Source: a bacterium (lineage in GTDB: Bacteria; Patescibacteriota; Minisyncoccia; UBA6257; GWB1-50-10). Taken from it: a DNA stretch of 64,000 bases. The position numbers and the translations under genes are program-made. Where the stretch lies: contig JAKAHD010000004.1 of the NCBI GenBank assembly GCA_021815205.1, forward strand, positions 4,990-68,989, read 5' to 3'. The notes beneath the pieces were generated by a model. That model ran no database searches. It had not been told where the DNA came from and saw only the letters and a list, made by a program, of their open reading frames with translations. Within the stretch, counting starts at the first letter, position 1; the number at the start of each line of letters is the position of its first letter. Positions 3,126 to 61,402 of this stretch are shown here, in pieces.

Positions 3126-5633
3126 ATGCCAAAAGACGATCAGAAACACGAGGAAGAACAAAATAATACTCCGAGCCAGAGAATAGAACCGCGCGAAATT
3201 ACGGAGGAGCTTCGCGAGTCGTACCTCGACTACGCGATGTCCGTCATCGTCTCGCGCGCCCTGCCCGACGTGCGGGACGGCATGAAACCCGTGCAAAGGA
3301 GAATCCTTTGGGCGATGTGGGACTCGGGCCTTACGCACGGCGCGAAGTTCAAGAAGTCCGCGAACGTCGTGGGAGAAGTGCTTGGGAAATACCATCCGCA
3401 CGGCGACATGGCGGTCTACGACGCTCTGGCGCGTATGGCGCAGGATTTCTCGCTCCGTTATCCCTTAATAGACGGGCAAGGAAATTGGGGTTCGGTTGAC
3501 GGGGACGGTCCTGCGGCGATGCGTTATACGGAAGCGCGTCTCGCAAAGATTGCGGAAGAGCTCTTGACGGACATCGAAAAAGAGACCGCCGACTGGACAC
3601 CAAACTACGACGCGACGCGCGAGGAACCGGCATACCTCCCCGCAAAACTTCCGAACTTGCTTTTGAACGGCGCGGTCGGCATCGCGGTCGGTATGGCAAC
3701 CTCGATCCCGCCGCACAATCTCGTCGAGATCGCGGAGGCGATCTCACACCTTATTGCGCACCCCGACGCCGACGTGAAGGAGCTCATGCAGTTTGTGCAG
3801 GGGCCCGATTTCCCGACGGGCGGCATCATATATGATCGCAGGGCACTTGAAGAGGCGTACGCGACCGGGAAGGGCTCCGTCACGATGCGCGCGAAAACCG
3901 AGATTGAGGAGCGGAAGAACGGGAGCTTCCAGATCATCATCTCGGAGATCCCGTATCAGGTGAATAAATCAACCTTGATCGAGAAGATCGCGGAGCTCGT
4001 GCAAGAGAAAAAAATCGAGGGTATTAAGGACGTGCGCGACGAATCGGACCGCGAGGGACTCCGCATCGTGATCGACCTCAAGGCGGACGTACGCGCACAG
4101 CGTATCTTGAACCAGCTCTTCCAGTACACCGAACTTCAAAAGAACTTTTACTTCAACATGCTTGCTTTGACGAACGGCTTGAAGCCGGAGGTTCTTTCCT
4201 TAAAAGATATCCTCTCGGCATACATCGAGCATCGGAAAACGGTGATCCGCCGGCGCACTGAGTTTGATCTTAAGAAAGCGGAGGAGCGGGCGCATATCCT
4301 GGAGGGGCTCGTCACGGCCCTCGAGGTAATCGACAAGATTATCGCGACCATCAAGAAATCGAAGGATAAGGACGAGGCGCGTCAGAATCTCGTCAAAAAT
4401 TTTAAACTTACCCCGATCCAGGCGGACGCGATCCTCGAGATGAAACTGCAGAGCCTCGCGGCGTTGGAGCGCATCAAAATCGAGGAAGAGCTTAAGGAGA
4501 AAAAGAAGCTTATCGCGGAACTGAAACTCATCCTTAAAGAACCGAAACGGATTCTGAAGATTATCGGGCAGGATCTCGAAGATCTGAAGAAGAACTTCCC
4601 CGACCCGCGCCGCACGAAAGTTGTGGCGAGCGGCCTCAAGGAGTTTAAGGAGGAGGATCTGATTCCAAAGGAAGAGGCGTTAATCACCCTCACGCGCGAC
4701 GGCTATATCAAGCGTATGCCTCCGAACACCTTCCGCGTACAAAAGCGCGGTGGGAAGGGCTTGATCGGATTCGACGTGAAGGAGGAAGATCAGATTTACC
4801 AGCTTCTTTCGGCCGACACGCACGACAACATGCTCTTCTTCACGACGAAGGGGCGGGTGTTCCAGACGAAGGCATACGAGGTGCCCGTCGCAAGCCGTAC
4901 CGCGAAAGGAAAGGCGATCTACAACTTCCTTGATATTCCGACAAATGAGAAGATCAGCGCGGTATTGACCTATCCGCAGAATCTTATCGAAGACAAGGGG
5001 GAGCGCGCAAAGCATTTTCTCGTAATGGCGACGAAGCGCGGCGTCATCAAGCGCACGGCGCTCGAGGATTTCGGAAACGTCCGGCGGAACGGCATTATCG
5101 CGATCAAGCTCCAAAGCGACGATCTTTTGGAATGGGTCCGCCTCTCATCGGGAGACGACCAGATTGTGCTCGTGACCGCAATGGGGCAGGCGATTCGCTT
5201 CAAAGAGAAGGATGTGCGCGCGATGGGGCGGAGCGCGGCGGGCGTGCGCGCCTTGCACCTCAAGAAACAGGACTCGGTGAGCGGGCTTGATATAATAAGG
5301 AAAGACGACTTGGAAAGAGCGGGCACATCATCGCTCCGCGTGCTCGCGGTTATGGCGAACGGCTTCGCGAAACAAACCTCGATCAAAGAGTATAAGATCC
5401 AGCGCCGGGGAGGATCGGGTGTGAAGACCGCGAAGATTACTGCAAAAACCGGACCCGTGATCGGCGCGCATATCGTGGGCGACGAGACGACCGAGGTACT
5501 CGCGTTTTCCTCGAAGGGGCAGGCCTTGAAAGCGGAGCTCAAGGATATCCGAGTTTTGAGCCGCGCAACCCAAGGCGTCAAAATCATGAATCTCGACAAA
5601 GGAGACACGCTGGTGGGGATCGTGTGCCTCTAA
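3126..5633 (+). CDS. gyrA: DNA gyrase subunit A
   Basis: Canonical N-terminus [29 protein letters not shown], GyrA-box-like region and C-terminal beta-pinwheel repeats. 835 aa. Confidence 0.93.
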
Positions 5634-5843
5634 AAAATTTTTAATTTTAAATTCTTAATTTTTAATCAATTCTAAATGACAAAATTCTTTAATTTTTAAA
5701 CATTAGAGTATCTATTGTTGAATAAAAATTTCAAATTTCAAGTTTTAAATCAATTTTAATTTACATAGTTTCAAATTACATAATTTCAAAATTTATTCAT
5801 TTAAAATTCAATTAAAATTGAGAAATTAAAATTTAAAATTTCG
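5634..5843. repeat. Family F AT-rich intergenic repeat, copy 2
   Basis: 5645-5760 aligns with 21045-21150 (AAATTCTTAATTTTTAATCAA...TTGAATAAAAATTTCAAATT). 5730-5820 is the inverse of 1775-1845. Confidence 0.6.
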
Positions 5844-7196: not shown

Positions 7197-7613
7197 ATGA
7201 AAAAAACAATCGCCTCACTTTTCTTCGCCCCGCTTCTCTTTCTTCTCACCTTTGGCATTTCACACGCGGCGCTCTTTGATATCTGGAAGGGAACCTCGAA
7301 CGGGGGCTGCAACGCGTCGGACTCCGGATGCAACTTATGCGACGCGGTAAAAGTTGTCGTAAATATCGTGAATGACCTTACAACCTTCGCAATCATCGCC
7401 GCGGTCGGCATGACGGTCTATGGCGCGATCGTGCTCATGATCTCCGGCGGCTCCGAGGAGCGGGTAAAGAAAGGAAAGAGCGTCATCTTCACTGCTGTGA
7501 CAGGGCTCGTGATCGTCCTTGCGGGGTGGCTTATTATAAACACCATCCTTCATTTCTTGACCGGCAGAGTTGACTTCCCGTGGGCGAACATACAATGCTA
7601 CAATGTGAAGTAA
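7197..7613 (+). CDS. TrbC/VirB2-like pilin paralog 1 (signal peptide ending AHA, then 2 TM helices)
   Basis: Signal peptide ...FGISHAA, a Cys-containing mature N-terminus, and two hydrophobic helices separated by GGSEERVKKGK. Same architecture as the next three genes. Confidence 0.65.
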   Translation: MKKTIASLFFAPLLFLLTFGISHAALFDIWKGTSNGGCNASDSGCNLCDAVKVVVNIVNDLTTFAIIAAVGMTVYGAIVLMISGGSEERVKKGKSVIFTAVTGLVIVLAGWLIINTILHFLTGRVDFPWANIQCYNVK

Positions 7614-7665
7614 CCAATAGGAATTACTGACTTGTGAGCCCAAGTGATCTTATCGGTCCCATAAT

Positions 7666-7700
7666 GTCATCCTGATCCGCCGATGAGGCGGAGAAGGATC
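7666..7700. repeat. Family A hairpin repeat GTCATCCTGATCCGCC-loop-GGCGGAGAAGGATC, copy 1
   Basis: Near-identical copies at 10524-10558 and 14246-14279 (inverted), plus a head-to-head pair inside rsmA at 22672-22746. Confidence 0.7.
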
Positions 7701-7715
7701 TATAGTAAAATAATC

Positions 7716-8126
7716 ATGTCCACTCTCAAAAAAATTTTATCCGCCTCACTTATCTCCGTTTTTGCTTCTGTGGCGATTGGAGTGTCCCTTGCGCACGCAC
7801 AAACCAGTTGCGATCCAACAATCCAGGCAAACTGTCCAACTCCTCCACCCAACTCTTCTATCGCCCTTTCGAATCCCTTGGGAACCAATAACTCGACTGT
7901 CGAAGATCTCCTCCACTCGATTGTGAACTGGCTCATCACGATCGCGACGCCGATCGCGGTCGGGATGATTTTAATAGGCGCGTTCCAGATGATCTTTGCG
8001 GGCGGGAATCCCGAACGTTTCGCGACGGGCAGAAAAACGATTCTTTACACCGCAATCGGGTATGCTATAATCGTTATAGGTTGGGGGATGGTCTCGATAA
8101 TCCGAGATATTCTGAACGTGCCATAA
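7716..8126 (+). CDS. TrbC/VirB2-like pilin paralog 2
   Basis: Signal peptide ...SLAHAQ, then TSCDPT..., two TM helices and a GGNPERFATGRK linker. Start placed at ATG 7716 because the track ORF start at 7683 lies inside repeat A. Confidence 0.65.
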   Translation: MSTLKKILSASLISVFASVAIGVSLAHAQTSCDPTIQANCPTPPPNSSIALSNPLGTNNSTVEDLLHSIVNWLITIATPIAVGMILIGAFQMIFAGGNPERFATGRKTILYTAIGYAIIVIGWGMVSIIRDILNVP

Positions 8127-8160
8127 CCCCCGAAAGGTCGAGAAGCAAAAAGTTTTTGCA

Positions 8161-8514
8161 ATGAATAAAACATTAAAAGTGGTAACCGCAGTGGCGCTCG
8201 CGGTAAGCATCCTTTCGCCTCTCGCCGCACTCGCGCAAGTACCAAACATCTCCGGAACGCCGCCGATTTCGAGCCTCTCCGGTGTACAAACGAGCCTCTA
8301 TGGAATCGTGAACTGGATTATCGTCATCTTCTGGGTCTTGACGGTACTCTTTCTTGTGTGGGCTGCAGTACTCTATCTCACAGGGGCAGGGAATGAAGAA
8401 AAAATTAAGGAGGCGAAGAATCGAGTCATCTACGCGATTATCGCGGCGGCGATTGCGCTTCTTGCGACTGGATTACAAAGTATTGTGACAAGTATTTTGA
8501 AGGGAAATCAATAA
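8161..8514 (+). CDS. TrbC/VirB2-like pilin paralog 3
   Basis: Signal peptide ...LAALAQ, two TM helices and a GAGNEEKIKEAKNR linker. Confidence 0.65.
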   Translation: MNKTLKVVTAVALAVSILSPLAALAQVPNISGTPPISSLSGVQTSLYGIVNWIIVIFWVLTVLFLVWAAVLYLTGAGNEEKIKEAKNRVIYAIIAAAIALLATGLQSIVTSILKGNQ

Positions 8515-8530
8515 GTTCTTCTTACCTAAA

Positions 8531-8560
8531 ACACGCGGTCCCTGGACCGCGTGTTTTTCG
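8531..8560 (+). terminator. Rho-independent terminator after pilin 3
   Basis: Stem ACACGCGGTCC/GGACCGCGTGT followed by TTTTT. Confidence 0.55.
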
Positions 8561-8592
8561 TCTTTGTCATCGAGTCCGTTTCAAGGCATTAT

Positions 8593-8620
8593 TGGTTTTT
8601 GAAATTGCTTCCAGTATAAT
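8593..8620 (+). promoter_or_regulatory. Candidate sigma70-type promoter for pilin 4 (-35 TTGGTT, 16-nt spacer, -10 TATAAT). The -10 element lies only ~8 nt from the ATG, so the transcript may be leaderless or short-leader.
   Basis: Perfect TATAAT at 8615-8620. ATG at 8628. Confidence 0.35.
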
Positions 8621-8627
8621 AGAACTA

Positions 8628-8960
8628 ATGAATTTATTTTCCTCTCTCGTTTCCACCGCTCACGCGCAAACCACATGCGACATCACCACAACTGCAAACT
8701 GCGTCTCGTCAGGACTCACCTCGCTCTCGCAGGTTGAGGGTTCCTTGAACCGGATTGTAGCATTCCTCTTTAATACGTTCTGGGTAGTCGCGGTTGGCAT
8801 GCTCATCTGGGCCGCGATTCTTTTTCTCACCGCCGGAGATAATAAAGAAACTATTGAAAAGGCGAAGAAGATGATTCTCTATGCGGTAATCGCGGCGGCG
8901 GCGGCGCTTCTTGCAAGCGGCATCTATTCCATTACGTATAATGTTCTCCAGGGGAAGTAA
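8628..8960 (+). CDS. TrbC/VirB2-like pilin paralog 4
   Basis: Signal peptide MNLFSSLVSTAHAQ, then TTCDITT..., two TM helices and a AGDNKETIEKAKK linker. Confidence 0.65.
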   Translation: MNLFSSLVSTAHAQTTCDITTTANCVSSGLTSLSQVEGSLNRIVAFLFNTFWVVAVGMLIWAAILFLTAGDNKETIEKAKKMILYAVIAAAAALLASGIYSITYNVLQGK

Positions 8961-8972
8961 CCAAACCCAGCA

Positions 8973-9008
8973 AAGGAGGTTGAACCTCCAGTGGAGGTTC
9001 AACCTCTA
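8973..9008. repeat. Family D palindromic repeat (AGGTTGAACCTCCAGTGGAGGTTCAACCT)
   Basis: Related hairpins occur in a tandem array at 18945-19090. Confidence 0.55.
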
Positions 9009-9024: not shown

Positions 9025-10491
9025 ATGACTGCCCGTCGCTCATATCTCATTCTTGCCATAATTCTCGCAATAAGCGCGGTCCTGCACTTCGTGCGTATCG
9101 GAACTCCCGCGCGCACGGTGTTCGACGAGGCATATTTTGCAACCTATGCCGCGAATGACGCCGCGCACATTCCTTATTTCGACATCCACCCGCCGCTCGG
9201 AAAATTTCTCTTTTCGATTCCGCTCTTCTTTGATAAGAGTGGTTTGAAAAATGCCACCTACATCGAAAATTCGCGGACATCCGACGGAATGTTTATTACG
9301 AAAGAGACGAACGTGCCATACGGCAACTTCCCGTATGTTATAGAGCGTTCGATAAGCGCCCTGTTCGGGCTTCTCCTTATTCTTGCGGTATTCCTTTTCG
9401 TGCGCGAGCTTGCGGGGAATCGCGCCGCGCTCCTTGCGGCATTTTTTGTCGCGCTCGAAAACGCGCTCCTCCTCGACACCCGCCTTATTCTGATGGACGG
9501 TATGTACCTCTCATTCGGCTTCCTCTCGCTCTATTTCTTCTTCAAATCCAAAAACCAAACCAACAAAAAATGGCAAGAGGAGAAGTCTGTGGATCTATTA
9601 TCGAAAGTGGCCAATACCACCAAGAAAGTGGGTAAGACTTGGGCTAGCGCCCCGGAGCGCACACTTTCTCGGTGGTATTGGCCACGCAATCTATTACTAT
9701 CCGCGATCTTCTTCGGCCTCGCCATAAGCATCAAGCTCACGGCGATCGTCTTCGTAGACCCGATCCTCGCATATCTCTTTTTCCAAAACGCCTTGCTGCG
9801 GGAGAAATTCCCCTGGAAGATGCTCTTGAAATTTTTTGGCGTTGCGCTCCTTGTGTTTCTCATCCTCCTCGTCGGGATAAGCAACATTCTCTTTACTCCC
9901 CAGGAGCAACTCTCTGTTGTCGGCTCGCTCTTTAATCTTCCGGCCGCGCTTCATGACCCCTCGCTCCTTAAATCAGTTTTCTACCAACTCTTCGTGGGAG
10001 TGTCTGGCTATGTTTCTGGCGGCGCAAACCCAATGATGAGTCCGTGGTACGCGTGGCCCTTCATGATGAAACCGATGCACTTTATGTACGGTCCTGCGGG
10101 AGGGTATCTCCCTGCTGGCACACAGATCACGCTTCTCGGCAATCCGTTCGTCTGGCTCCTCTCTACGTTCGCCGTACTGCTCGTCTTATGGAAAAGTGTG
10201 CTTATAATCCTGAAACGCCTTCCGTCGGCGGGGGAGCGTGACGTACCGATTGCGGTACTTTTCGGGGGCTATGTAATATCACTGATCCCGTTCTTCACGC
10301 TCGTGCACCGTGCGACCTATCTCTACCATTACTTCCCCTCCCTCCTCTTCGCGATTGCGCTCGCGGCGATCCTTGTGATGCGCGCGCTCGAAGGAAAAAC
10401 AAAACATGCGAAGCTACTCGCGCTTGGCGCGATAGGAATTCTCTCGGTGTGGGGCTTCATTCTCGTCGCCCCGTACACCTACGGATTATAA
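9025..10491 (+). CDS. Dolichyl-phosphate-mannose-protein mannosyltransferase-like glycosyltransferase (PMT/GT39 family), polytopic membrane protein
   Basis: N-terminal motif VFDEAYFATYA...DIHPPLGK, diagnostic of the PMT/ArnT (GT-C) family, and about 11 TM helices. Contains an in-frame family B repeat insertion at 9633-9668. Confidence 0.7.
   Translation: MTARRSYLILAIILAISAVLHFVRIGTPARTVFDEAYFATYAANDAAHIPYFDIHPPLGKFLFSIPLFFDKSGLKNATYIENSRTSDGMFITKETNVPYGNFPYVIERSISALFGLLLILAVFLFVRELAGNRAALLAAFFVALENALLLDTRLILMDGMYLSFGFLSLYFFFKSKNQTNKKWQEEKSVDLLSKVANTTKKVGKTWASAPERTLSRWYWPRNLLLSAIFFGLAISIKLTAIVFVDPILAYLFFQNALLREKFPWKMLLKFFGVALLVFLILLVGISNILFTPQEQLSVVGSLFNLPAALHDPSLLKSVFYQLFVGVSGYVSGGANPMMSPWYAWPFMMKPMHFMYGPAGGYLPAGTQITLLGNPFVWLLSTFAVLLVLWKSVLIILKRLPSAGERDVPIAVLFGGYVISLIPFFTLVHRATYLYHYFPSLLFAIALAAILVMRALEGKTKHAKLLALGAIGILSVWGFILVAPYTYGL
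9633..9668. repeat. Family B repeat (GACTTGGGCTAGCGCCCCGGAGCGCACACTTT) inserted in frame in the PMT gene. It encodes KTWASAPERTL.
   Basis: The same sequence sits in frame in rsmA (22971-23003, also translated as TWASAPERTL) and intergenically at 36382-36414 (inverted). Confidence 0.7.
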
Positions 10492-10523: not shown

Positions 10524-10558
10524 GCGTCATCCTGATCCGCCTTGGGCGGAGAAGGATC
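10524..10558. repeat. Family A hairpin repeat, copy 2
   Basis: GCGTCATCCTGATCCGCCTTGGGCGGAGAAGGATC. Confidence 0.7.
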
Positions 10559-10560
10559 TT

Positions 10561-14142: not shown

Positions 14143-14245
14143 CTTATTGTACCACCTGTCGCACAAGAAAACCTGCTGAAAAAGCCTTCTTTCTCTTGAT
14201 TATTTTCTCTACTTCCGCGGCGAGAGAAATCCTTCGGGGAATTTT

Positions 14246-14279
14246 CTTCTCCGCCTCATGGGCGGATCAGAATGACGAC
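14246..14279. repeat. Family A hairpin repeat, copy 3 (inverted orientation)
   Basis: CTTCTCCGCCTCATGGGCGGATCAGAATGACGAC. Confidence 0.65.
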
Positions 14280-17440: not shown

Positions 17441-17464
17441 AAGATTTGCGCCTTATATCTCTTC

Positions 17465-17560
17465 ATTTGAGCGCTCCAAGCGCGCCTGCCTGCGCAGGCA
17501 GGCTAGCCCAAGCCCCCACATCTATGGCATAGGTGTGGGGGCAAGTCTTACTCTTACTCC
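17465..17560. repeat. Family B-related composite repeat (GCGCTCCAAGCGCGCCTGCCTGCGCAGGCAGGCTAGCCCAAG...CAAGTCTTACTC)
   Basis: Shares its core with 61281-61333 and 36382-36414. Confidence 0.55.
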
Positions 17561-17606
17561 GAGAGGTGCAGCAGCTGCTCTTTAAGTCTCGCTCCGCATT
17601 TTTTCA

Positions 17607-17702
17607 TTCTCCTTCGCCTGAATACCTCGCCGCGTGCGATGATGATGAGGGGGGTTGGCTTCGGACGAATTCCAATACCGCACCGCGTGCGGTGCGGTAT
17701 CT
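17607..17702. repeat. Family C repeat (TCCTTCGCCYGAATACCTC...GCGTGCGATG ... GGTTGGCTTCGGAYGAATTCCRATACCGC), short form
   Basis: A long form lies at 53857-54082 and a half copy at 43477-43519. Confidence 0.6.
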
Positions 17703-18944: not shown

Positions 18945-19090
18945 TCCCATGAGGTCCAACCTCCTATGGAGGTTGTTCTCCCATGAGGTCCTATGAGGTC
19001 CAACCTCCATAGGAGGTTGGACCTCATAGGTATATTCAGTAGGTTCTCGCTACACGAGGTCCAACCTCCTATGGAGGTTGGACCTCGTTA
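18945..19090. repeat. Tandem array of three family D hairpins (GAGGTCCAACCTCC(T)ATGGAGGTTGGACCTC), including a 36-bp perfect palindrome at 18994-19029
   Basis: Direct reading of the sequence. REP/BIME-like cluster. Confidence 0.65.
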
Positions 19091-19497: not shown

Positions 19498-21036
19498 ATG
19501 CAGGAGGTTCCGAAACTTCTTTCAGCGGAACTTGACGGCATCACCGCCGAACCTATTGAAGTAGAGGCCGACTTGAACGTCGGTCTTCATGCGTTTAACA
19601 TCGTGGGCCTCGCCGACAAGGCCTTGAATGAAGCGAAGGAGCGCGTGAACTCCGCGCTCAAGAACTCGGGTATTCGGCCTCCCACAAAAGAAAATCGGCG
19701 CATCACGGTGAATCTCGCGCCCGCGGATATCAGGAAGGTGGGGTCGCGATTCGATCTGCCGATCGCGCTCGCCTACCTCATGGCAAGCGAACAGCTTGCT
19801 CCTTTTAAGACCAGCGACAAGGTGTTTGTGGGAGAGCTTTCTCTTGACGGAACGCTCCGTCCCGTCACGGGCTGTCTTAATATTGCCCTCATGGCGCGCG
19901 ACCGCGGGCTCAAGGAGCTTTTCCTTCCGGAAATAAACGCCGAGGAGGCATCGGTTATTAAGGAGGTAACCGTCTTCCCCGTAAGGACGCTTTCCGAACT
20001 TATCGGCCACCTCGAGGGTGTGTCTCCCATACCTCCTTATCCGCACGCGCCGCAGGAAGGGACGTATACTCCCTCGCTCGTAACCCTCGGGGAAATCAAG
20101 GGGCAGGGCGCGGCAAAGCGCGCGCTCCTTATCGCGGCGGCGGGAGGGCACAACATCCTTTTTTCGGGGCCCCCGGGGACCGGGAAGACCATGCTCGCCC
20201 AGGCGCTCGTCTCGATTCTTCCTCCGCCCTCCCTTCAGGAAAAAATAGAAATTACTTCGATCTACAGCGCCGCGGGACTCTTGCGCCGCGATCTTTCTTT
20301 CATGCACTTCCGCCCCTTCAGGGCGCCGCACCACAGCGCGTCCTTGATCGCGATCGTGGGAGGCGGCCAAAACCCGAAACCGGGAGAAATAAGTCTCGCG
20401 CATCGCGGCGTGCTCTTCCTTGATGAAGCGCCCGAGTTTCACCGCGATGTGCTCGAGGGATTGCGCCAGCCGCTTGAAGGAGGAATGGTCTCGATCGCCC
20501 GGGCACGAAAAGCGCTGCTCCTTCCCTCACGTTTCATACTTGCCGCGGCGATGAATCCGTGCCCGTGCGGCTACTTCGGCGACCCAGAGAAAGAATGCAC
20601 CTGCACCGCCCGCGAGGTGTTCCGCTACAAAAAGCGGCTCTCCGGGCCGCTCTTGGACCGCATCGACATCCAGTTCGAGGTTCCCCGCATCACAATCGAG
20701 GTACTTCGCGAGGAGAAAACGGGAGAAGGAGATGGCGGGGCGCGGGAGGCGGTGGCGCGTGCGCGAGCGATACAACGGGAACGGTTTGCGCGGCACGGGA
20801 TCTCCGTCTACACGAACAGTGAGCTCTCCTCAAAACATATCGACGAGCTTGCCGCGCTCGAACCCGCCGCCGAGTCGTTCTTGAAAGATACACTCGAGCG
20901 GGCGTTTGTTTCGACAAGAAGCTATTATCGTATTCTGAAAGTGGCGCAGACCATCGCCGACCTTGCATCAAGCCCCGTGATAAAAAAAGACCACCTCTCG
21001 GAGGCGTTTCAATATAGGATAAGAACAAACGAATAA
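19498..21036 (+). CDS. comM: YifB/ComM-family Mg-chelatase-like AAA+ ATPase
   Basis: N-terminal ChlI-like region, Walker A GPPGTGKT and GVLFLDEAPEF. 512 aa. Confidence 0.8.
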   Translation: MQEVPKLLSAELDGITAEPIEVEADLNVGLHAFNIVGLADKALNEAKERVNSALKNSGIRPPTKENRRITVNLAPADIRKVGSRFDLPIALAYLMASEQLAPFKTSDKVFVGELSLDGTLRPVTGCLNIALMARDRGLKELFLPEINAEEASVIKEVTVFPVRTLSELIGHLEGVSPIPPYPHAPQEGTYTPSLVTLGEIKGQGAAKRALLIAAAGGHNILFSGPPGTGKTMLAQALVSILPPPSLQEKIEITSIYSAAGLLRRDLSFMHFRPFRAPHHSASLIAIVGGGQNPKPGEISLAHRGVLFLDEAPEFHRDVLEGLRQPLEGGMVSIARARKALLLPSRFILAAAMNPCPCGYFGDPEKECTCTAREVFRYKKRLSGPLLDRIDIQFEVPRITIEVLREEKTGEGDGGAREAVARARAIQRERFARHGISVYTNSELSSKHIDELAALEPAAESFLKDTLERAFVSTRSYYRILKVAQTIADLASSPVIKKDHLSEAFQYRIRTNE

Positions 21037-21155
21037 TTTCTAGTTTAAAATTCTTAATTTTTAATCAAATTAGAATGAATTAATTTTTAAAATTAAAACA
21101 TTGTTTACTTAAAAATTGAATAAAAATTTCAAATTAAAAATTTAAAATTGCAGAA
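21037..21155. repeat. Family F AT-rich intergenic repeat, copy 3
   Basis: Aligns with 5645-5760. Confidence 0.6.
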
Positions 21156-22253
21156 TTACTTCGTCACCGCAAACGGATTCTTCGCGCCGTACACCTCAAA
21201 GTGCAGGTGGCAGCCCGTGGGCCCGTGCGTGTTTCCCGTGTTGCCCATAAGTCCTATTGTTTCTCCCTGCGTCACGTAGTCGCCGGGTTTTACGAGCGCC
21301 TTCGCGAGGTGTGCGTATCGCGTCCGGGTGCGGTTCGGATGCTCGACCAGCACGAAGATCCCATACCCGTTGTTCCATCCTCCGGCGCCGCTTCCCAAAC
21401 TCTCGTCGGAGATAACGAGTCCCTCGGCGGCCGCATTGACCGGCGTGCCGCACTGATTCGCGATATCAATCGCATTATAGTCGTGCAGTTCGCCCCAGTT
21501 CCATCCGATCGCGGGAAGGGAAAAGTAATTTTTGAGATCGGGGAGGTTCGCGACGTCCGCCGCCAATCCCTGCCGACGCTCGGAGGGGAGCGACTGTGCG
21601 TAAGGAAGGGTGATACTCCCGCTCCCGTTACTCAATGCCGTCTCGTAGTTTGGGTTATATTTCTTAATAAGCTCGCTGTCAATGTGATAGCGGCTCGATA
21701 TGTCTTGCAGAGTATCACCGCGCCGCACGTGATACACAATTCCCGATACGGGAAGGATGAGGAGTTTCTGCCCCACACTCAACCTTGATCCGACGCCTGG
21801 ATTTGCCCGAAGTATCGTCTCCTCCGAAACTTGAAAACGGACGGCAATACTCGTAATAGTATCTCCGCGACGCACCTTGTACTCCTTAAGTCCTCCGCCT
21901 ATCGGTGAGAGGTTGCTTAATGGATTTGAAGACGCCACCACCGCCGTATTGTCCGCGACCAAGACGCCATTCAACGCGGGTTCAGATAACCGAAGCGTCG
22001 AGGAGGGGGGTGTTGCTCCCGCAGAGGCCGCAATCGTCTCCGGTTTCTGCACCGGTCCTCCAAATCCCCACAGATCTTCGTTTTGATAGACATCTGCGCG
22101 CTTCATGTTCGCCCCGAAGGCCGTCCCGAAGAGCGCGAGGGCGAGTACAAAAAGCACCGACCAGAAGCTGGTCGTTCTTGGAACCCCTCGTTTCCAGAGG
22201 GTCTTTAATTGAGACAAGATCGTACTTATGGGTAGAGTATAGCACATCTCCAT
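21156..22253 (-). CDS. Peptidase M23 family protein with two LysM domains (cell-wall hydrolase)
   Basis: Two LysM motifs (VRRGDTITSIAVRF and VRRGDTLQDISSRY). M23 catalytic HxH motif (CHLHFEV) and GNTGN.TGPH. Confidence 0.8.
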   Translation of the reverse strand: MEMCYTLPISTILSQLKTLWKRGVPRTTSFWSVLFVLALALFGTAFGANMKRADVYQNEDLWGFGGPVQKPETIAASAGATPPSSTLRLSEPALNGVLVADNTAVVASSNPLSNLSPIGGGLKEYKVRRGDTITSIAVRFQVSEETILRANPGVGSRLSVGQKLLILPVSGIVYHVRRGDTLQDISSRYHIDSELIKKYNPNYETALSNGSGSITLPYAQSLPSERRQGLAADVANLPDLKNYFSLPAIGWNWGELHDYNAIDIANQCGTPVNAAAEGLVISDESLGSGAGGWNNGYGIFVLVEHPNRTRTRYAHLAKALVKPGDYVTQGETIGLMGNTGNTHGPTGCHLHFEVYGAKNPFAVTK

Positions 22254-22413: not shown

Positions 22414-23529
22414 ATGCCACGAAAGCTGGGTCAGCATTTTTTGAAGAACAAGGATGCTATCAAAAAAACGGTTGCCGCACTCGATGTGAAGGACGGCGAT
22501 ATTGTTATTGAAGTGGGGCCGGGGCATGGAGAACTCACAGAATATCTCAAAATGCAAAAATCAAAATGTAAAATTATCGCCATCGAAAAAGATGCGCGGC
22601 TTGCAAATTTCCTTGAAAAGAAATTTTTGTCATATTCCCATCCCGCCAGCTCTCCTTTTCTCCGTCATCCTGAGTCCTCCTCTTCGGCGGACGAAGGATC
22701 TCTCCACGGAGATTCCTCTCCGCCAAAGGCGGATCGGAATGACAGGAAGGGTGGGTGGCGGACTTGGAATAACAACGGGGAAGAGAGTCGGAGGGTTGAG
22801 ATTATTCACGGCGACATTTTAAAAATCCTTCCCACCATCATTGCCGAAGTAATGAATGAAGAAGATTCCCGTGCGGCGGAAAAAGTGGGTGAAGGACTGC
22901 GTCCTTCTTCCGACATCGTTCGGCTGAAATATGAGCATGCTCTTATTTCACTCCTCGCTCGTCGGAATAGGACTTGGGCTAGCGCCCCGGAGCGCACACT
23001 TTTTCTGCCGCACGGGAATCTTTCGTACAAACTCATCGGCAACATTCCCTACTACCTCACGGGGTATCTTCTCCGCACAATAAGCGAGCTCCCGATTCTT
23101 CCCGAGCGCGCGGTCTTCATGATTCAAAAGGAGGTTGCGGAGCGGATTGTGGCGCTCCCGCCGCGCATGAACCTCCTTGCGGCGAGCGTTCGCTACTGGA
23201 GCGATCCCAAAATCATAGCCGCCGTCTCAAAAGACGACTTTTCCCCGCCCCCCAAGGTCGAGTCCGCGGTGATACTCCTCAAAACACTCCCTTCTGCGAC
23301 AAAAACTCGCACACTCCCGAAAGAAAACTACTACCGCGCCGTGAAATTACTCTTTGCACACCCGAGAAAAACTATCTTGAACAACATTAGGCCTGGTTTT
23401 CATCCCTTCCAGAACGATTTTTTGGGCGAACTTGAGCGGGCGGGCATCAATCCGGAGGGAAGGCCCCAGAATCTGAGCGTACATGATATAAAAAAGATAA
23501 GCGAAATAGTGTACAATATGAATGAGTAA
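22414..23529 (+). CDS. rsmA: 16S rRNA (adenine1518/1519-N6)-dimethyltransferase RsmA/KsgA, carrying two in-frame insertions derived from repeat families A and B
   Basis: LGQHFL...EVGPGHGELT...IAIEKD and C-terminal KsgA motifs. About 100 extra residues relative to typical KsgA are encoded by repeat sequences at 22672-22746 and 22971-23003. Confidence 0.8.
   Translation: MPRKLGQHFLKNKDAIKKTVAALDVKDGDIVIEVGPGHGELTEYLKMQKSKCKIIAIEKDARLANFLEKKFLSYSHPASSPFLRHPESSSSADEGSLHGDSSPPKADRNDRKGGWRTWNNNGEESRRVEIIHGDILKILPTIIAEVMNEEDSRAAEKVGEGLRPSSDIVRLKYEHALISLLARRNRTWASAPERTLFLPHGNLSYKLIGNIPYYLTGYLLRTISELPILPERAVFMIQKEVAERIVALPPRMNLLAASVRYWSDPKIIAAVSKDDFSPPPKVESAVILLKTLPSATKTRTLPKENYYRAVKLLFAHPRKTILNNIRPGFHPFQNDFLGELERAGINPEGRPQNLSVHDIKKISEIVYNMNE
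22672..22746. repeat. Head-to-head pair of family A repeats inserted in frame in rsmA
   Basis: CGTCATCCTGAGTCCTCCTCTTCGGCGGACGAAGGATC ... GATTCCTCTCCGCCAAAGGCGGATCGGAATGAC. Confidence 0.65.
22971..23003. repeat. Family B repeat inserted in frame in rsmA (encodes TWASAPERTL)
   Basis: Identical core to 9633-9668. Confidence 0.7.
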
Positions 23530-27629: not shown

Positions 27630-29243
27630 ATGCCAAACGAAGAACGTGAAAACTTATACTGGATTCCCATCCTCGACGATTCCGTCTGGGAGCCGCTTCA
27701 GAAAAAAAACTATGCCGACGCCGAGCTTGCACTCGGAAGCATACTTGAATCCCTTTCCCCCCACGAATGGAATGTGGTGTTTTGGGCGGCGCTTATAGAA
27801 GGGTTCCCGATTGTGCGCGGAGAGCTCACCGAAAAAGAGTGGCGGGAGAACGTGCAGCCGATGCTCGCAAGATTGGTGCTTCAAATCGCCTCCGGAGAAG
27901 CTACCGCCAATATATTCAGCGAGCTGGTCTCATATCCCGACACCGCACAAAAATTCGAAACGCTTCTCATTTACACCTCAACAACCGCGGATGTCGAGAG
28001 TGAAATAAAAATCAAAAAAATAAATCGTCCGCTCTATACCTTCCTTATTGCAAGTCCTGCTCAAGAACTCTTTTCTCCTTTATCGCCATACCGTATCGCA
28101 AGGATTTCTTCGGTGGTGGTGAGCCAGCGCTACACCACAATCCCAGAAAAACTCAAAGATGAACTCTTCTCCTACGCAACCGCCGAAGATATTGCGAGGA
28201 TCGCGGGGGAACAACATCTTTCTCCTGAAAAGACGAATGTGATCGCGACACTTACCGGAAGGGTGCTCCTTGGATTTCTCCACCTTGAGGATATGAAAAA
28301 AGAAATTCAAAAAACACTTGATTTGGATCCGCGGCTTACGGACGCGGTCTATCAGGCGCTCGACAAAAAAATATTTTCTGAATTCAAGGACGAAATCCAC
28401 GAGGTGTATGATCCCGTAATTATCCAAACAAAACCGTCGGAAACCGGGTCCTCGCCGGAACCCGAAGAAAAAACAATCACCTTCGCGGGACTCGAGAAAG
28501 ACGCCCTAGGACCGGAAGAAAACGTGCCGGTGCGTATCTCGAGCGCTCCAATAGAAGAAAAGAAGGAAGACAACCCGTTCGTGCTTCAAGAAGAGAAGCC
28601 GCTTGAGACGGCGGGGGGCACGATGACGGGGAAAAAGTTTTCATTTTCGCTCGGCGGATTCTTCAAACCAAAGAAGAAGGACGAATCCGTCTCCCGGGAA
28701 CCCGTAAAGGCAAAGATAGAGCTTTTTGGCGGAGACAAAGACGAGAAAAGAGTAATTCATTATAGTGAGCTCCGCACGCCGCTCGAGGCGAGAGAAGAGG
28801 ACATCTTCAAGCTAAAAGAAGAACAGCCGATTAGTCCGATAGGACAGATTGGTCCTATCGGTCCAATTGGTCAAATTGGTCCAATTGGTTCTGTTGGTAG
28901 TCCTACCAGTCCTATTAGTCCAATTGATTCCAATTCCGCTTCCGCCCCTTCTCCGCTCACGCCTCCATCTACGAAGAAATCCCCCTGGGCGTTCAAGTGG
29001 TTCGGCTCCCAGGCGCCCGCCCGCGATGAGCAGAAAGCGGTTCCTGAAAATAAGACCGTGGGTGAAACATCGTTCGAGGAAAAACCGGAAGAGAAAAAAG
29101 AAAAAGAACCAGTTAGTCCTATCAGTCAAATTGGTCCAATCAATCCTATAAGTCCAATAGGTTCAATCAGTCCTATCACAGACGAACCCAAGAACCCCAC
29201 CATTGAGGGGAATATTGTGGACTTACGCACGCTCAAAAAATAA
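27630..29243 (+). CDS. Hypothetical soluble protein with Gly-X-Y / PIS tandem repeats near the C-terminus
   Basis: No TM helix. Contains GQIGPIGPIGQIGPIGSVGSP, encoded by 9-bp tandem repeats. Confidence 0.45.
   Translation: MPNEERENLYWIPILDDSVWEPLQKKNYADAELALGSILESLSPHEWNVVFWAALIEGFPIVRGELTEKEWRENVQPMLARLVLQIASGEATANIFSELVSYPDTAQKFETLLIYTSTTADVESEIKIKKINRPLYTFLIASPAQELFSPLSPYRIARISSVVVSQRYTTIPEKLKDELFSYATAEDIARIAGEQHLSPEKTNVIATLTGRVLLGFLHLEDMKKEIQKTLDLDPRLTDAVYQALDKKIFSEFKDEIHEVYDPVIIQTKPSETGSSPEPEEKTITFAGLEKDALGPEENVPVRISSAPIEEKKEDNPFVLQEEKPLETAGGTMTGKKFSFSLGGFFKPKKKDESVSREPVKAKIELFGGDKDEKRVIHYSELRTPLEAREEDIFKLKEEQPISPIGQIGPIGPIGQIGPIGSVGSPTSPISPIDSNSASAPSPLTPPSTKKSPWAFKWFGSQAPARDEQKAVPENKTVGETSFEEKPEEKKEKEPVSPISQIGPINPISPIGSISPITDEPKNPTIEGNIVDLRTLKK
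28829..28935. repeat. 9-bp tandem repeat tract (ATYGGTCMA)n inside the CDS
   Basis: agtccgataggacagattggtcctatcggtccaattggtcaaattggtccaattggttctgttggtagtcct. A second tract lies at 29110-29180. Confidence 0.7.
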
Positions 29244-29734: not shown

Positions 29735-29973
29735 TGAGAATGGAAAGAACTCGGAACTTTACACGACTAAAAAGTGTGCGCTCCGGGGCAACAAGCCCCA
29801 AGTCTTATTCCGACGAGCGGGGAGTGAAATAGGGGCATGCTCACATATTTCAGCCGAACGATGTCGGAAGAAGGACGCAGTCTTTCACCCACTTTTTAGT
29901 CGTTAAAGTTCCTCGACGTTATTTTTGAGATTATTCATAATTCGTATAAAATAGAGGTAGAGGTACTACATAC

Positions 29974-36348: not shown

Positions 36349-36381
36349 GGTTTTTGCCCTGCGCCGCTATTTTCTCATTCG

Positions 36382-36414
36382 GGCGCTCCGGGGCGCTAGC
36401 CCAAGTCTTACCCT
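36382..36414. repeat. Family B repeat (inverted orientation)
   Basis: GCGCTCCGGGGCGCTAGCCCAAGTCTTACCCTC. Confidence 0.65.
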
Positions 36415-36467
36415 CACTCGAAAAAGCGGTGCAGGGCCTTGTAGTGGGGAATGCGACGCGAGGATGA

Positions 36468-37836: not shown

Positions 37837-37971
37837 GCTATACGGTGAGTCTTTTGCGTTTCTTCGCTCTCCTTCGCCTTAACACATTCCTCCCTTGCGG
37901 CGAGCGCGACCGTTTTAAAAACCCATGTGTTCGCCTTCTCTTTTTTTTCTTCGGTTGATATGTTTGGCTCA
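37837..37971 (-). CDS. rpmH: 50S ribosomal protein L34
   Basis: Hand translation gives [44 protein letters not shown] (44 aa). This is below the 60-aa ORF-track cutoff. Canonical position upstream of rnpA. Confidence 0.85.
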
Positions 37972-43468: not shown

Positions 43469-43476
43469 ATAGTTTA

Positions 43477-43519
43477 TTCCCCTTCGCCCGAACACCTCCG
43501 TCGCGTGCGATGCGGTATC
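43477..43519. repeat. Family C repeat, half copy
   Basis: TTCCCCTTCGCCCGAACACCTCCGTCGCGTGCGATGCGGTATC. Confidence 0.5.
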
Positions 43520-53755: not shown

Positions 53756-53856
53756 ATAATAAGGCATGCAACAGAGGCGTTGGGAATTATTGTTTCGCTG
53801 TTTGGCTGAGTTATCACCGCATCGCCGTCTTTTTTCCAATCGCATCTAAACTTTTT

Positions 53857-54082
53857 ATTCTCCTTCGCCCGAATACCTCCGTCGCGTGCGATGAGGATGA
53901 ATCCCGTTAGAAGCTCACACGGGGTATTAAACCCCGCGTTCGCCACGGGACGAGGCATTCATCCCCGTGGCAAGCCACGGGGTTTCCTGCTTCTCACGGG
54001 ATGAAGGGCGAAGGGGAACCTTTCCGTAGTCCGCTCGAGGCGGACGAAGGAGGGTTGGCTTCGGATGAATTCCGATACCGCG
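53857..54082. repeat. Family C repeat, long form (~225 bp) with an internal multi-hairpin insert
   Basis: Ends match 17607-17702. The interior has three GC-rich hairpins, and the left end pairs with GGGCGAAGGGGAA at 54002-54013. Confidence 0.55.
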
Positions 54083-61251: not shown

Positions 61252-61280
61252 TACTTCCTCACCATACGTCCCGCCGGCTC

Positions 61281-61333
61281 GGGCGCTCCAAGGGCGCCTG
61301 CCCGCGCAGGCAGGCTAGCCCAGTCTTACCCTC
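61281..61333. repeat. Family B-related repeat inserted into the loop of a 13-bp inverted repeat (CATACGTCCCGCC/GGCGGGACGTATG), a likely terminator hairpin
   Basis: Perfect 13-bp IR at 61263-61275 and 61336-61348 flanks the element. Confidence 0.55.
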
Positions 61334-61402
61334 GTGGCGGGACGTATGACTCGGAATATAACTTGAAAGGGGTGTTATAGAGTTGAATAAAACCTCACTG
61401 CT

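Follow-up and report, generated by a model that had tools for sequence, protein, structure and literature searches.

The 64,000-nucleotide stretch of patescibacterial DNA analysed here (contig JAKAHD010000004.1 of assembly GCA_021815205.1, hereafter the window) harbors rsmA (ksgA), whose product is recognized by the Pfam family RrnaAD (E = 7e-36), and a gene specifying a PMT-family glycosyltransferase, both of which carry dispersed palindromic repeats in frame. Two repeat families, designated A and B, are involved, and additional copies of each occupy intergenic positions (Table 1). An earlier note on this DNA had drawn attention to these repeats and had likened them to the palindromic elements of Rickettsia. 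We propose that the extra segments of RsmA and PMT are probably small, non-autonomous selfish hairpin elements which entered loops of the host proteins with preservation of the reading frame, and which are translated as dispensable surface excursions.

In-frame repeats in rsmA and the PMT gene

RsmA of the window comprises 371 residues, compared to approximately 255 to 275 in its homologues, the nearest named of which belong to Jorgensenbacteria, Wolfebacteria, Colwellbacteria, and related Parcubacteria. Its match to the KsgA/RsmA structure PDB 3tqs falls into two blocks (RsmA residues 2 to 72 aligned to residues 4 to 72 of the chain, and residues 205 to 366 aligned to 98 to 254), which places about 107 surplus residues between the blocks, from motif II to motif IV of the methyltransferase, in agreement with the excess of approximately 100 residues that the earlier note had reported. 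The note had further claimed that two additional segments break the conserved methyltransferase fold, and orthologue alignments indeed display both as additions to the fold which, as in PMT, are made of the same DNA repeats as those found between genes.

The first segment (insert 1) contains a head-to-head pair of family A hairpins, as had been noted for positions 22672 to 22746, the limits of which are here refined to 22664 to 22745. This doublet is predicted to fold with -45.4 kcal/mol and is read as RHPESSSSADEGSL / GDSSPPKADRNDR. The closest RsmA, protein P0002 on contig L099 (62% identity over aligned columns), carries the same doublet, recognizable base for base, and has no insert 2. It follows that insert 1 is older than the split of the two lineages.

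The second segment (insert 2) had been described as a family B repeat at 22971 to 23003, translated as RTWASAPERTL. Both the repeat and its translation stand, yet these positions represent merely the apex of a complete 162-nt hairpin, whose predicted fold (-88.1 kcal/mol, z = -8.4) is very stable, the z-scores of the folds ranging from -5.7 to -8.4. The insert amounts to exactly 54 codons and the reading frames are intact, as the earlier note had maintained. Excision of the 162 nt in silico leaves the sequence LPTIIAEVMNES-YKL, of the same loop length as the corresponding LPEVTYPPLTIH-YKL of L099, and both 26-nt arms thus belong to insert 2 rather than to duplicated host sequence; for this reason, the proposition that the arms derive from a duplicated target or from a pre-existing host hairpin was ruled out. 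Approximately 125 nt of the interior are 90 to 98% identical to the intergenic copy at 29750 to 29915, where they are mounted on unrelated arms. As a separate observation, RsmA orthologues of other Patescibacteria (P0004, P0009, P0033, P0073/P0099, and P0092) have inserts of other repeat-like sequence, both in these two loops and close to the C-terminal domain.

Table 1. Genes, inserts, and hairpin repeats of the window (aa, amino acids; CDS, coding sequence; nt, nucleotides; ORF, open reading frame).
Feature	Position	Strand	Remarks
PMT-family (GT39-like) glycosyltransferase CDS	9025..10491	+	488 aa; Pfam PMT, PMT_4TMC
Short-form family B in frame in PMT	9607..9685	+	79 nt; 24-nt arms 9607-9630/9662-9685; core 9631-9661
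rsmA (ksgA) CDS	22414..23529	+	371 aa from MPRKLGQHFL; ORF caller start 22357
RsmA insert 1 region	22630..22790	+	~50 extra aa, residues ~73-125, between helix alpha-B and strand beta-3; gap in most orthologues
Family A hairpin, plus copy GTCATCCTGAGTCCTCCTCTTCGGCGGACGAAGGATCTC, in RsmA	22664..22702	+	Kept in L099
Family A hairpin, inverted copy, in RsmA	22708..22745	-	Forms 82-nt head-to-head doublet with 22664-22702; also in L099
RsmA insert 2	22861..23022	+	162 nt, an exact 54 codons; whole family B hairpin of the long form
Left stem arm, RsmA family B	22862..22887	+	26-nt inverted repeat, 96% complementary
Nested 78-nt module in RsmA family B core	22891..22968	+	Duplicated AGGACT on both sides; none in short-form copies
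Apical core, RsmA family B, AGGACTTGGGCTAGCGCCCCGGAGCGCA	22969..22996	+	Read as RTWASAPER
Right stem arm, RsmA family B	22997..23022	+	Partner of 22862-22887
Degenerate intergenic family B	~17462..17565	-	Enlarged apical hairpin plus further nested hairpin; empty site in OY970216.1
Intergenic long-form family B	29750..29915	-	Nested module of the RsmA copy on different arms; short form at the orthologous locus of L089
Intergenic family B, inner-stem subfamily 3	36351..36442	-	Between convergent ORFs; covariance-model score 70.5 bits
Intergenic family B	61252..61359	-	Enlarged apical hairpin
Solo intergenic family A hairpin	7666..7702	+	
Solo intergenic family A hairpin	10526..10560	+	Just 3' of PMT
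Solo intergenic family A hairpin	14240..14276	-	Inverted repeat

The presence of an identical family B sequence in frame in the PMT gene, likewise proposed earlier, is borne out by the 30-mer ACTTGGGCTAGCGCCCCGGAGCGCACACTT, which occurs exactly twice in the window (positions 9637 to 9666 and 22972 to 23001; none expected from 100 shuffles) and which is read as KTWASAPERTL in PMT and as RTWASAPERTL in RsmA. The full PMT element scores 85.9 bits with the family B covariance model, its fold being predicted at -51 kcal/mol (z = -8.0). Translation, which we infer from the intact reading frames alone, would yield insert-derived peptides such as TWASAPER and LRHPESSSSADEGSLHGDSSPPK. The remaining copies of the window are intergenic, as had been stated, and comprise four of family B and three of family A, the latter family thus being represented by five copies in total.

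The expectation that the inserts occupy surface loops was examined with an AlphaFold2 model of RsmA (16-sequence alignment), in which pLDDT is mostly above 90 across the Rossmann-type methyltransferase core, below 50 at residues 75 to 125 and 184 to 200, and approximately 50 to 60 at residues 150 to 183. The model has the inserts entering just ahead of strands 128 to 132 (beta-3) and 205 to 210 (beta-4). In class I methyltransferases, the loops ahead of beta-3 and beta-4 face away from the side which binds S-adenosylmethionine and the substrate. With placement derived from the order of secondary structure elements and general knowledge of the fold rather than from coordinates, the RsmA inserts would most likely represent tolerated surface-loop excursions, consistent with their low pLDDT around a confidently modelled core.

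Family A consists of a hairpin of approximately 35 nt (GTCATYCTGA-TCCGCC-loop-GGCGGA-GAAGRATCT), in which two short helices flank a tandem G-A internal loop (pairing layout ATCCT-GA-TCCGCC-loop-GGCGGA-GA-AGGAT), and its doublets are bounded by GTCATYCTGA...TCRGRATGAC. Among the Patescibacteria loci examined, the family was encountered only in close relatives of the window, and a metagenome scan located it on at least 120 contigs with a GC content of 33 to 69%. Among the matches listed, an inverted partner terminus (TCRGRATGAC) was present no more than 150 nt away in 71 of 112 usable copies (63%), the doublet units spanned 61 to 174 nt, and 16 of the 112 copies (14%) resided inside ORFs of at least 200 aa, to which the copies in RsmA and in the PMT gene of contig L100 are to be added. 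The frequency of inverted doublets among these copies indicates that RsmA insert 1 is a complete member of a widespread doublet class resembling REPINs, doublets in which repetitive extragenic palindromic (REP) elements are paired, and solo copies such as the three of the window are likely to be remnants of doublets. No parent insertion sequence was seen for family A, despite its conserved inverted termini, and these termini returned no match in the searchable literature.

Family B across the Patescibacteria

The distribution of family B was assessed by scanning the Genome Taxonomy Database (GTDB), at one genome per species (185,579 species genomes), with the pattern GACTTGGGCTAGC-N(3-33)-GGAGCGC. 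Among the 98 loci obtained were approximately 90 true copies in approximately 60 genomes, every one of them in Patescibacteria (Saccharibacteria, Nanosyncoccus, Jorgensen-, Kaiser-, Adler-, Nomura-, Peregrini-, and Peribacteria, Minisyncoccia, and Paceibacterota), and five matches in other phyla, which have no flanking hairpin and are ascribed to chance. The exact core is absent from the viral contigs of IMG/VR, on which ground carriage by phages was rejected as an explanation for identical cores across phyla. The searchable literature contained neither a match to the core nor a relevant report of a miniature inverted-repeat transposable element (MITE) or palindromic element for these bacteria. 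Family B is apparently an undescribed element present throughout the Patescibacteria.

By explicit extension of the arms, all true copies were found to present the core GTAAGACTTGGGCTAGCGCCCCGGAGCGC atop a stem of 19 to 32 bp whose sequence is specific to the copy, and the family B unit may be summarized as approximately 83 nt, composed of a stem of approximately 27 bp of free sequence and a conserved apical core of 29 nt. Stems of at least 50 pairs, as returned by RNAfold, were discarded as an artefact of the fixed fold window, given that arm extension limits them to 19 to 32 nt. In an ungapped alignment of 85 copies, 77.6% of the stem cells pair (54.7% after shuffling), and the covariation score of the stem is 0.562, compared to 0.167 for shuffled alignments, none of 500 of which reached the observed value. 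When partners were slid by one to three columns as a control, the score fell to 0.14 to 0.24. Nearly every stem column contains four to six types of pair; outside columns 6 to 32, pairing decays. Three inner-stem subfamilies were discerned, namely AAAAAGTGG...ACACTTTTT, CGAGGGA...TCCCGAG, and GAACGAGG...CCGAGTGAA, of which the latter two both keep tandem G-A pairs. A loose consensus, GAGNCCCGGYRYG..., is common to arms from different copies and marks them as diverged element sequence. Mismatches on the core-sense strand of the stem comprise 133 G:T as opposed to 70 A:C, an excess which points to a single-stranded core-sense form, either DNA or RNA, as the selected structure. The core itself is near invariant across phylum-level lineages, compared to 57 to 85% identity of the flanking essential coding DNA, a contrast which arises partly by construction, as the loci were retrieved via the exact core pattern.

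Approximately 30% of family B copies (30 of about 100) lie in frame within long ORFs, in both orientations, their hosts encoding TypA/BipA, UvrB, LigA, TsaD, Tgt, GatB, MnmA, RecX, TruB, and a cysteine desulfurase-like protein. According to context statistics for which genes were called by simple ORF heuristics, relative to the host or upstream gene, two thirds of the copies lie antisense, and the mRNA hence bears the complement of the core; intergenic copies of tandem gene pairs begin a median of approximately 2 nt past the upstream stop codon; and divergent intergenic regions hold 12 of 60 copies, which, relative to a background of 16%, does not amount to depletion. A role as terminator is unsupported, given that the copies are not depleted from divergent regions and are mostly antisense to the upstream gene.

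The number of copies runs from one with the exact core in a genome to several within 8 kb; SPRUCE 530 contains two to three per locus of 7 to 8 kb, and the 805-kb chromosome OY970216.1 contains at least nine exact-core copies with related arms. Arms are likewise related among the copies within SPRUCE 530 and within FK3.bin18, which indicates that the whole hairpin is the copied unit. The sites of family B turn over: they differ between the window and the related chromosome OY970216.1, in which the site of the window copy at 17462 to 17565 is empty. At the locus corresponding to 29750 to 29915, the syntenic contig L089 (70 to 78% identical) has a plain short core on related arms. Among in-gene copies at orthologous sites, the core is found in opposite orientations, from one species to another, on recognizably related arms, both in TypA (L050 and L086 versus L001 and L082) and in UvrB (L088 versus L030), and such a flip alters the encoded peptide from ...VARLGLAPRSA... 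to ...SGALRGASPSL.... In the stems of orthologous in-gene copies, pairing survives at 33 positions with substitutions on both sides and at 6 with a substitution on one side only, and it is broken at 16.

The PMT orthologues were retrieved by protein homology and are free of the ascertainment that attaches to exact-core retrieval, and they have, therefore, been given more weight. The element is present at the same place in a clade made up of the window, P0124, P0125, and P0126, and is absent from P0127 to P0132. The PMT genes of the window, L103, and L104 have mutually unrelated stems (GTGGCCAATACCACC..., GGAGTACCGGTGCCG..., and GGGATTGATACAGAGG...), each perfect or near perfect, together with a recognizable core at the same codon position; the element of L102 has a decayed outer stem (left arm). 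In the PMT gene of L100 (76% identical), a family A doublet stands where the core and left arm of family B would be, next to what remains of the right arm, and the PMT loop of L101 contains a 9-nt periodic repeat instead of family B.

Nesting of one element within another was also evident. In approximately 1 Mb of Patescibacteria DNA examined, the only other copy of the structured 78-nt module of RsmA is located at 29806 to 29890 (minus strand), is 93% identical, and interrupts another family B core at the same point. A hexamer is duplicated around the module in both cases (AGGACT in RsmA and AAGACT at 29806 to 29890), and the module has the look of a secondary insertion that was site specific and duplicated its target. 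The RsmA and PMT loops are thus hotspots for small palindromic elements, which land within or next to each other, a form of clustering which has also been noted for REPINs (PMC3116915).

Origin of the inserts and alternative explanations

Hairpins of REP, REPIN, and IS200 sequences, or those of replication origins in which the loop is conserved, are recognized by HUH/Y1 enzymes. The origin and recognition hairpins of HUH systems, such as those of rolling-circle Rep proteins and of IS200/IS605 ends, combine a free stem with an invariant loop or adjacent motif, and the enzyme reads their shape together with a short sequence. Family B presents the same combination of free stem and invariant loop, and this analogy offers a possible lead to its mechanism. 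In the reading preferred here, family B would be copied as a whole hairpin via a single-stranded intermediate on the core-sense strand and would be read by a trans-acting enzyme on the basis of shape and loop sequence, as by HUH/Y1 enzymes. The arms could stay complementary because the hairpin is selected for, because template switching corrects quasi-palindromes, or for both reasons, and recombination between the arms would account for flipping of the core. The survivors in essential genes would be confined to in-frame, stop-free insertions in tolerant loops.

The resemblance in behavior to Rickettsia palindromic elements (RPEs) proposed in the earlier note is supported. RPEs insert in frame, contribute extra peptide segments which are compatible with the host fold, and encode no transposase of their own; as is the case here, RPE-1 to RPE-10 are dispersed palindromic repeats that occupy intergenic DNA as well as, in frame, unrelated housekeeping genes (PMC10969869). 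The parallel of a tolerated in-frame insertion, therefore, stands, whereas membership of the RPEs does not, as family B is set apart by its host range (Patescibacteria rather than Rickettsia) and, going by how RPEs have been described, by its sequence, and family A belongs to another, widespread doublet class. RPEs constitute families of approximately 150 bp with conserved sequence and peptide, whereas family B keeps just the 29-nt loop, its stem and peptide being free, and its core can flip to yield another peptide. The organization of families A and B is closer to that of REP/REPIN-type hairpin elements than to that of RPEs. REPINs consist of two repeats which together fold into a hairpin and exhibit compensatory changes (PMC3116915), and family A resembles them in that two short inverted palindromes and a spacer form a long hairpin and in that, among the metagenome matches listed, doublets outnumber singlets. 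Family A doublets are present in RsmA, both of the window and of L099, as well as in the PMT gene of L100; the arrangement does not apply to family B, which is a single hairpin. Family B, in turn, shares with REPINs a hairpin shape kept by compensatory changes and the insertion of new elements in or beside old ones (PMC3116915). Unlike REP sequences and REPINs, which are extragenic by definition, 14 to 30% of the copies described here lie within genes, the lower figure being that for family A among the matches listed, and the conserved base and variable spacer at the tip of REPINs are reversed in family B. MITEs, including intragenic ERIC, QMITE1 of Coxiella, and the MITEs of Anabaena, are comparable as small non-autonomous repeats able to make translational fusions with host ORFs. 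They possess, however, conserved terminal inverted repeats, target-site duplications, and related insertion sequences, whereas the arms of family B are hypervariable, and neither a duplication at the boundaries inspected nor a parent insertion sequence was seen; a duplicated hexamer, A(A/G)GACT, was encountered only at the nested 78-nt module. The copies also differ from CRISPR and TIGR arrays in that they are dispersed single hairpins, kilobases apart and on both strands, with no regular tandem spacing.

Several observations weigh against the interpretation of the repeats as selfish elements. A core of 25 to 29 nt identical in Saccharibacteria and in Parcubacteria-type lineages is unusually conserved for junk DNA and could signify a host function, and exact-core retrieval accounts for part of that conservation. 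The stem displays RNA-like features, namely the excess of G:U over A:C, tandem G-A pairs that are conserved, and a GUAA motif. Relative to the host or upstream gene, the core-sense strand runs antisense in 42 of 63 cases and sense in 21, a ratio of 2:1 which a neutral parasite does not obviously predict. Neither excision nor insertion has been seen directly, and mobility is deduced from presence and absence between species that are only 60 to 78% identical. Neither a target-site duplication nor a parent insertion sequence nor a transposase came to light; the hairpin boundaries inspected exhibit no evident direct repeats, the available empty sites being too divergent (62% amino acid identity) to settle the matter. 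The possibility of a transposase gene between paired copies was also pursued and set aside, as the ORFs at five loci look like housekeeping genes (UvrA, RpsL-like, and Nfo-like among them) by N-terminal sequence, no domain scan having been made.

A functional RNA or DNA signal represents the main rival to a selfish origin. We deem it unlikely that family B is a functional structured RNA, be it an mRNA element acting in cis, a hairpin for termination or stability, or a processed small RNA with a loop that binds a Patescibacteria protein, with the in-gene copies as functional modules. Strong covariation in a fixed-length stem that bears a conserved loop, the approximately two-fold preponderance of G:U over A:C on the core-sense strand, the tandem G-A pairs conserved beside the loop in two subfamilies, the compensatory changes at orthologous sites, the placement of tandem-pair intergenic copies directly behind the upstream stop codon, and the very stable folds would all be anticipated from such an RNA. 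It is difficult to reconcile, however, with residence of approximately 30% of the copies in unrelated essential genes in both orientations, with mRNAs which for the most part would carry the complement of the core, with the flipped cores at orthologous TypA and UvrB sites, with presence that varies among related genomes, and with the undiminished frequency in divergent intergenic regions. Nor was an Rfam family matched: the window yielded only two tRNAs against Rfam 15 at the gathering threshold, and four loci returned nothing meaningful on the elements at E-values up to 1, except that one of them gave a weak match, of a generic-hairpin kind, to a plant microRNA precursor. Similarity of GGUAAGA...GCGCAC to the P13 hairpin of Escherichia coli RNase P RNA, as well as attempts at fitting a kink-turn, was dropped as unsupported. 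Domestication by the host as a DNA signal in recombination, repair, replication, or DNA uptake, whereby the hairpin or cruciform is under selection and its spread is a by-product, appears improbable as well. It would accommodate the contrast between the near-invariant core and the flanking coding DNA (subject to the ascertainment noted above), the acceptance of both orientations, and the lack of exact copies in viral contigs, and REP/REPIN sequences with their single-copy REP-associated tyrosine transposases (RAYTs) provide a precedent for a long-lived association of element and host enzyme (PMC3116915). Against it stand the wide range of copy number, positions which are not conserved between related genomes, the decay of copies (the left arm in L102 and the window copy at 17462 to 17565), and the fact that no associated gene was identified among the ORFs inspected.

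Explanations at the level of the protein or of the assembly are weaker still. The notion that the inserts are native, lineage-specific protein sequence under protein-level selection, resembling the intergenic repeats by chance, is largely refuted and highly improbable. Although the reading frames are intact, insert 1 as well as the PMT insert is retained in more than one species, and AlphaFold2 assigns two helices to insert 2 with low confidence, the inserts match intergenic copies at the nucleotide level, the peptide is wholly changed by a core flip or by stem replacement, different repeats occupy the same PMT loop in close relatives, and pLDDT is low in the inserts. Assembly chimeras, that is, repeat-induced mis-joins within genes, are scarcely credible. 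The sequences are metagenome assemblies, and repeats are a classic source of mis-assembly, but the same 390-aa RsmA product is recorded on five contigs, and independent assemblies of other species carry insert 1 (L099) and the PMT element (L102, L103, and L104) at the same codons, which renders an artefact very unlikely; the intact frames, including the exact 54 codons of insert 2, argue likewise.

If the extra segments are selfish hairpins, as proposed here, in-frame palindromic elements, once thought peculiar to Rickettsia and a few others, act across the candidate phyla radiation, whose very small genomes would be expected to harbor little selfish DNA, and they affect core genes, including rsmA, typA, uvrB, ligA, tsaD, and tgt. 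Their activity would explain overlong "housekeeping" proteins and odd low-complexity peptides in annotations, and it counsels caution against reading such segments as adaptive protein insertions. They would also constitute a natural experiment in the tolerance of extra peptide in surface loops of essential enzymes. The covariance model of family B (R1) may be used to mask the element or to conduct a census of it, and the combination of an invariant loop with a free, paired stem predicts a loop-reading enzyme in organisms which are not yet genetically tractable. A bolder proposition, which is possible but on present evidence doubtful, is that family B constitutes a new, Patescibacteria-wide class of hairpin whose 29-nt loop is read by a conserved trans-acting enzyme, whose stem is free, and which resides largely within essential genes, is renewed or flipped where it stands, offers other mini-elements a place to land, and has a loop more constant than the host genes. 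Should this be true, and should the partner be an HUH-type or other single-strand DNA enzyme common to the radiation, element and enzyme would represent a new system, and one by which the lineage of these reduced genomes could be marked.

Other repeats and neighboring genes

A third palindromic family, GAGGTCCAACCTCC..GGAGGTTGGACCTC, is represented by three nested or tandem copies at 18946 to 19086, between two genes, and by one copy at 8976 to 9006, just 5' of PMT. A motif of approximately 40 nt, TTCTCCTTCGCCYGAAYACCTCCGTCGCGTGCGATG, recurs in intergenic or gene-start regions (17601 to 17640, 37861 to 37905, 43471 to 43515, and 53852 to 53896) with no Rfam match, its reverse complement containing a Shine-Dalgarno-like GGAGGT and AAGGAGAA. 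AT-rich dispersed repeats of the AATTTCAAATTT type form long imperfect inverted repeats in the intergenic regions 1731 to 1842, 5631 to 5843, and 21030 to 21161.

Repeats are also translated elsewhere. The 9-nt periodic repeat GTCCAATTG at window positions 28834 to 29176, within the ORF at 27630 to 29243, encodes collagen-like G-P-I/G-Q-I triplets, and the same 9-mer repeat is found in another frame in the PMT loop of L101 (positions 707 to 793), where the window has family B. UvrA of L066 (2850 to 5492) contains an insert of the NPVRNSPPQRPSGRASAGEISNGV type, and in L085 (760 to 1000, the N-terminus of MnmA) a tandem related unit, GAGTAGCTCTTCCGAGGGAGTAGAGCTTGGGTTAGCCGT, is situated 5' of a family B copy and is translated as the repeats PSSTPSEELLTAN. 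In-frame repeat peptides seem to be common in the Patescibacteria radiation.

Directly upstream of PMT, three to four small genes specifying products which resemble type IV secretion system (T4SS) pilins (PF18895) are present in the window (7197 to 8960), in L100, and in L102 to L104. The conservation of this pilin cluster upstream of PMT in all of these relatives suggests, as judged from gene order, that PMT may glycosylate pilins.

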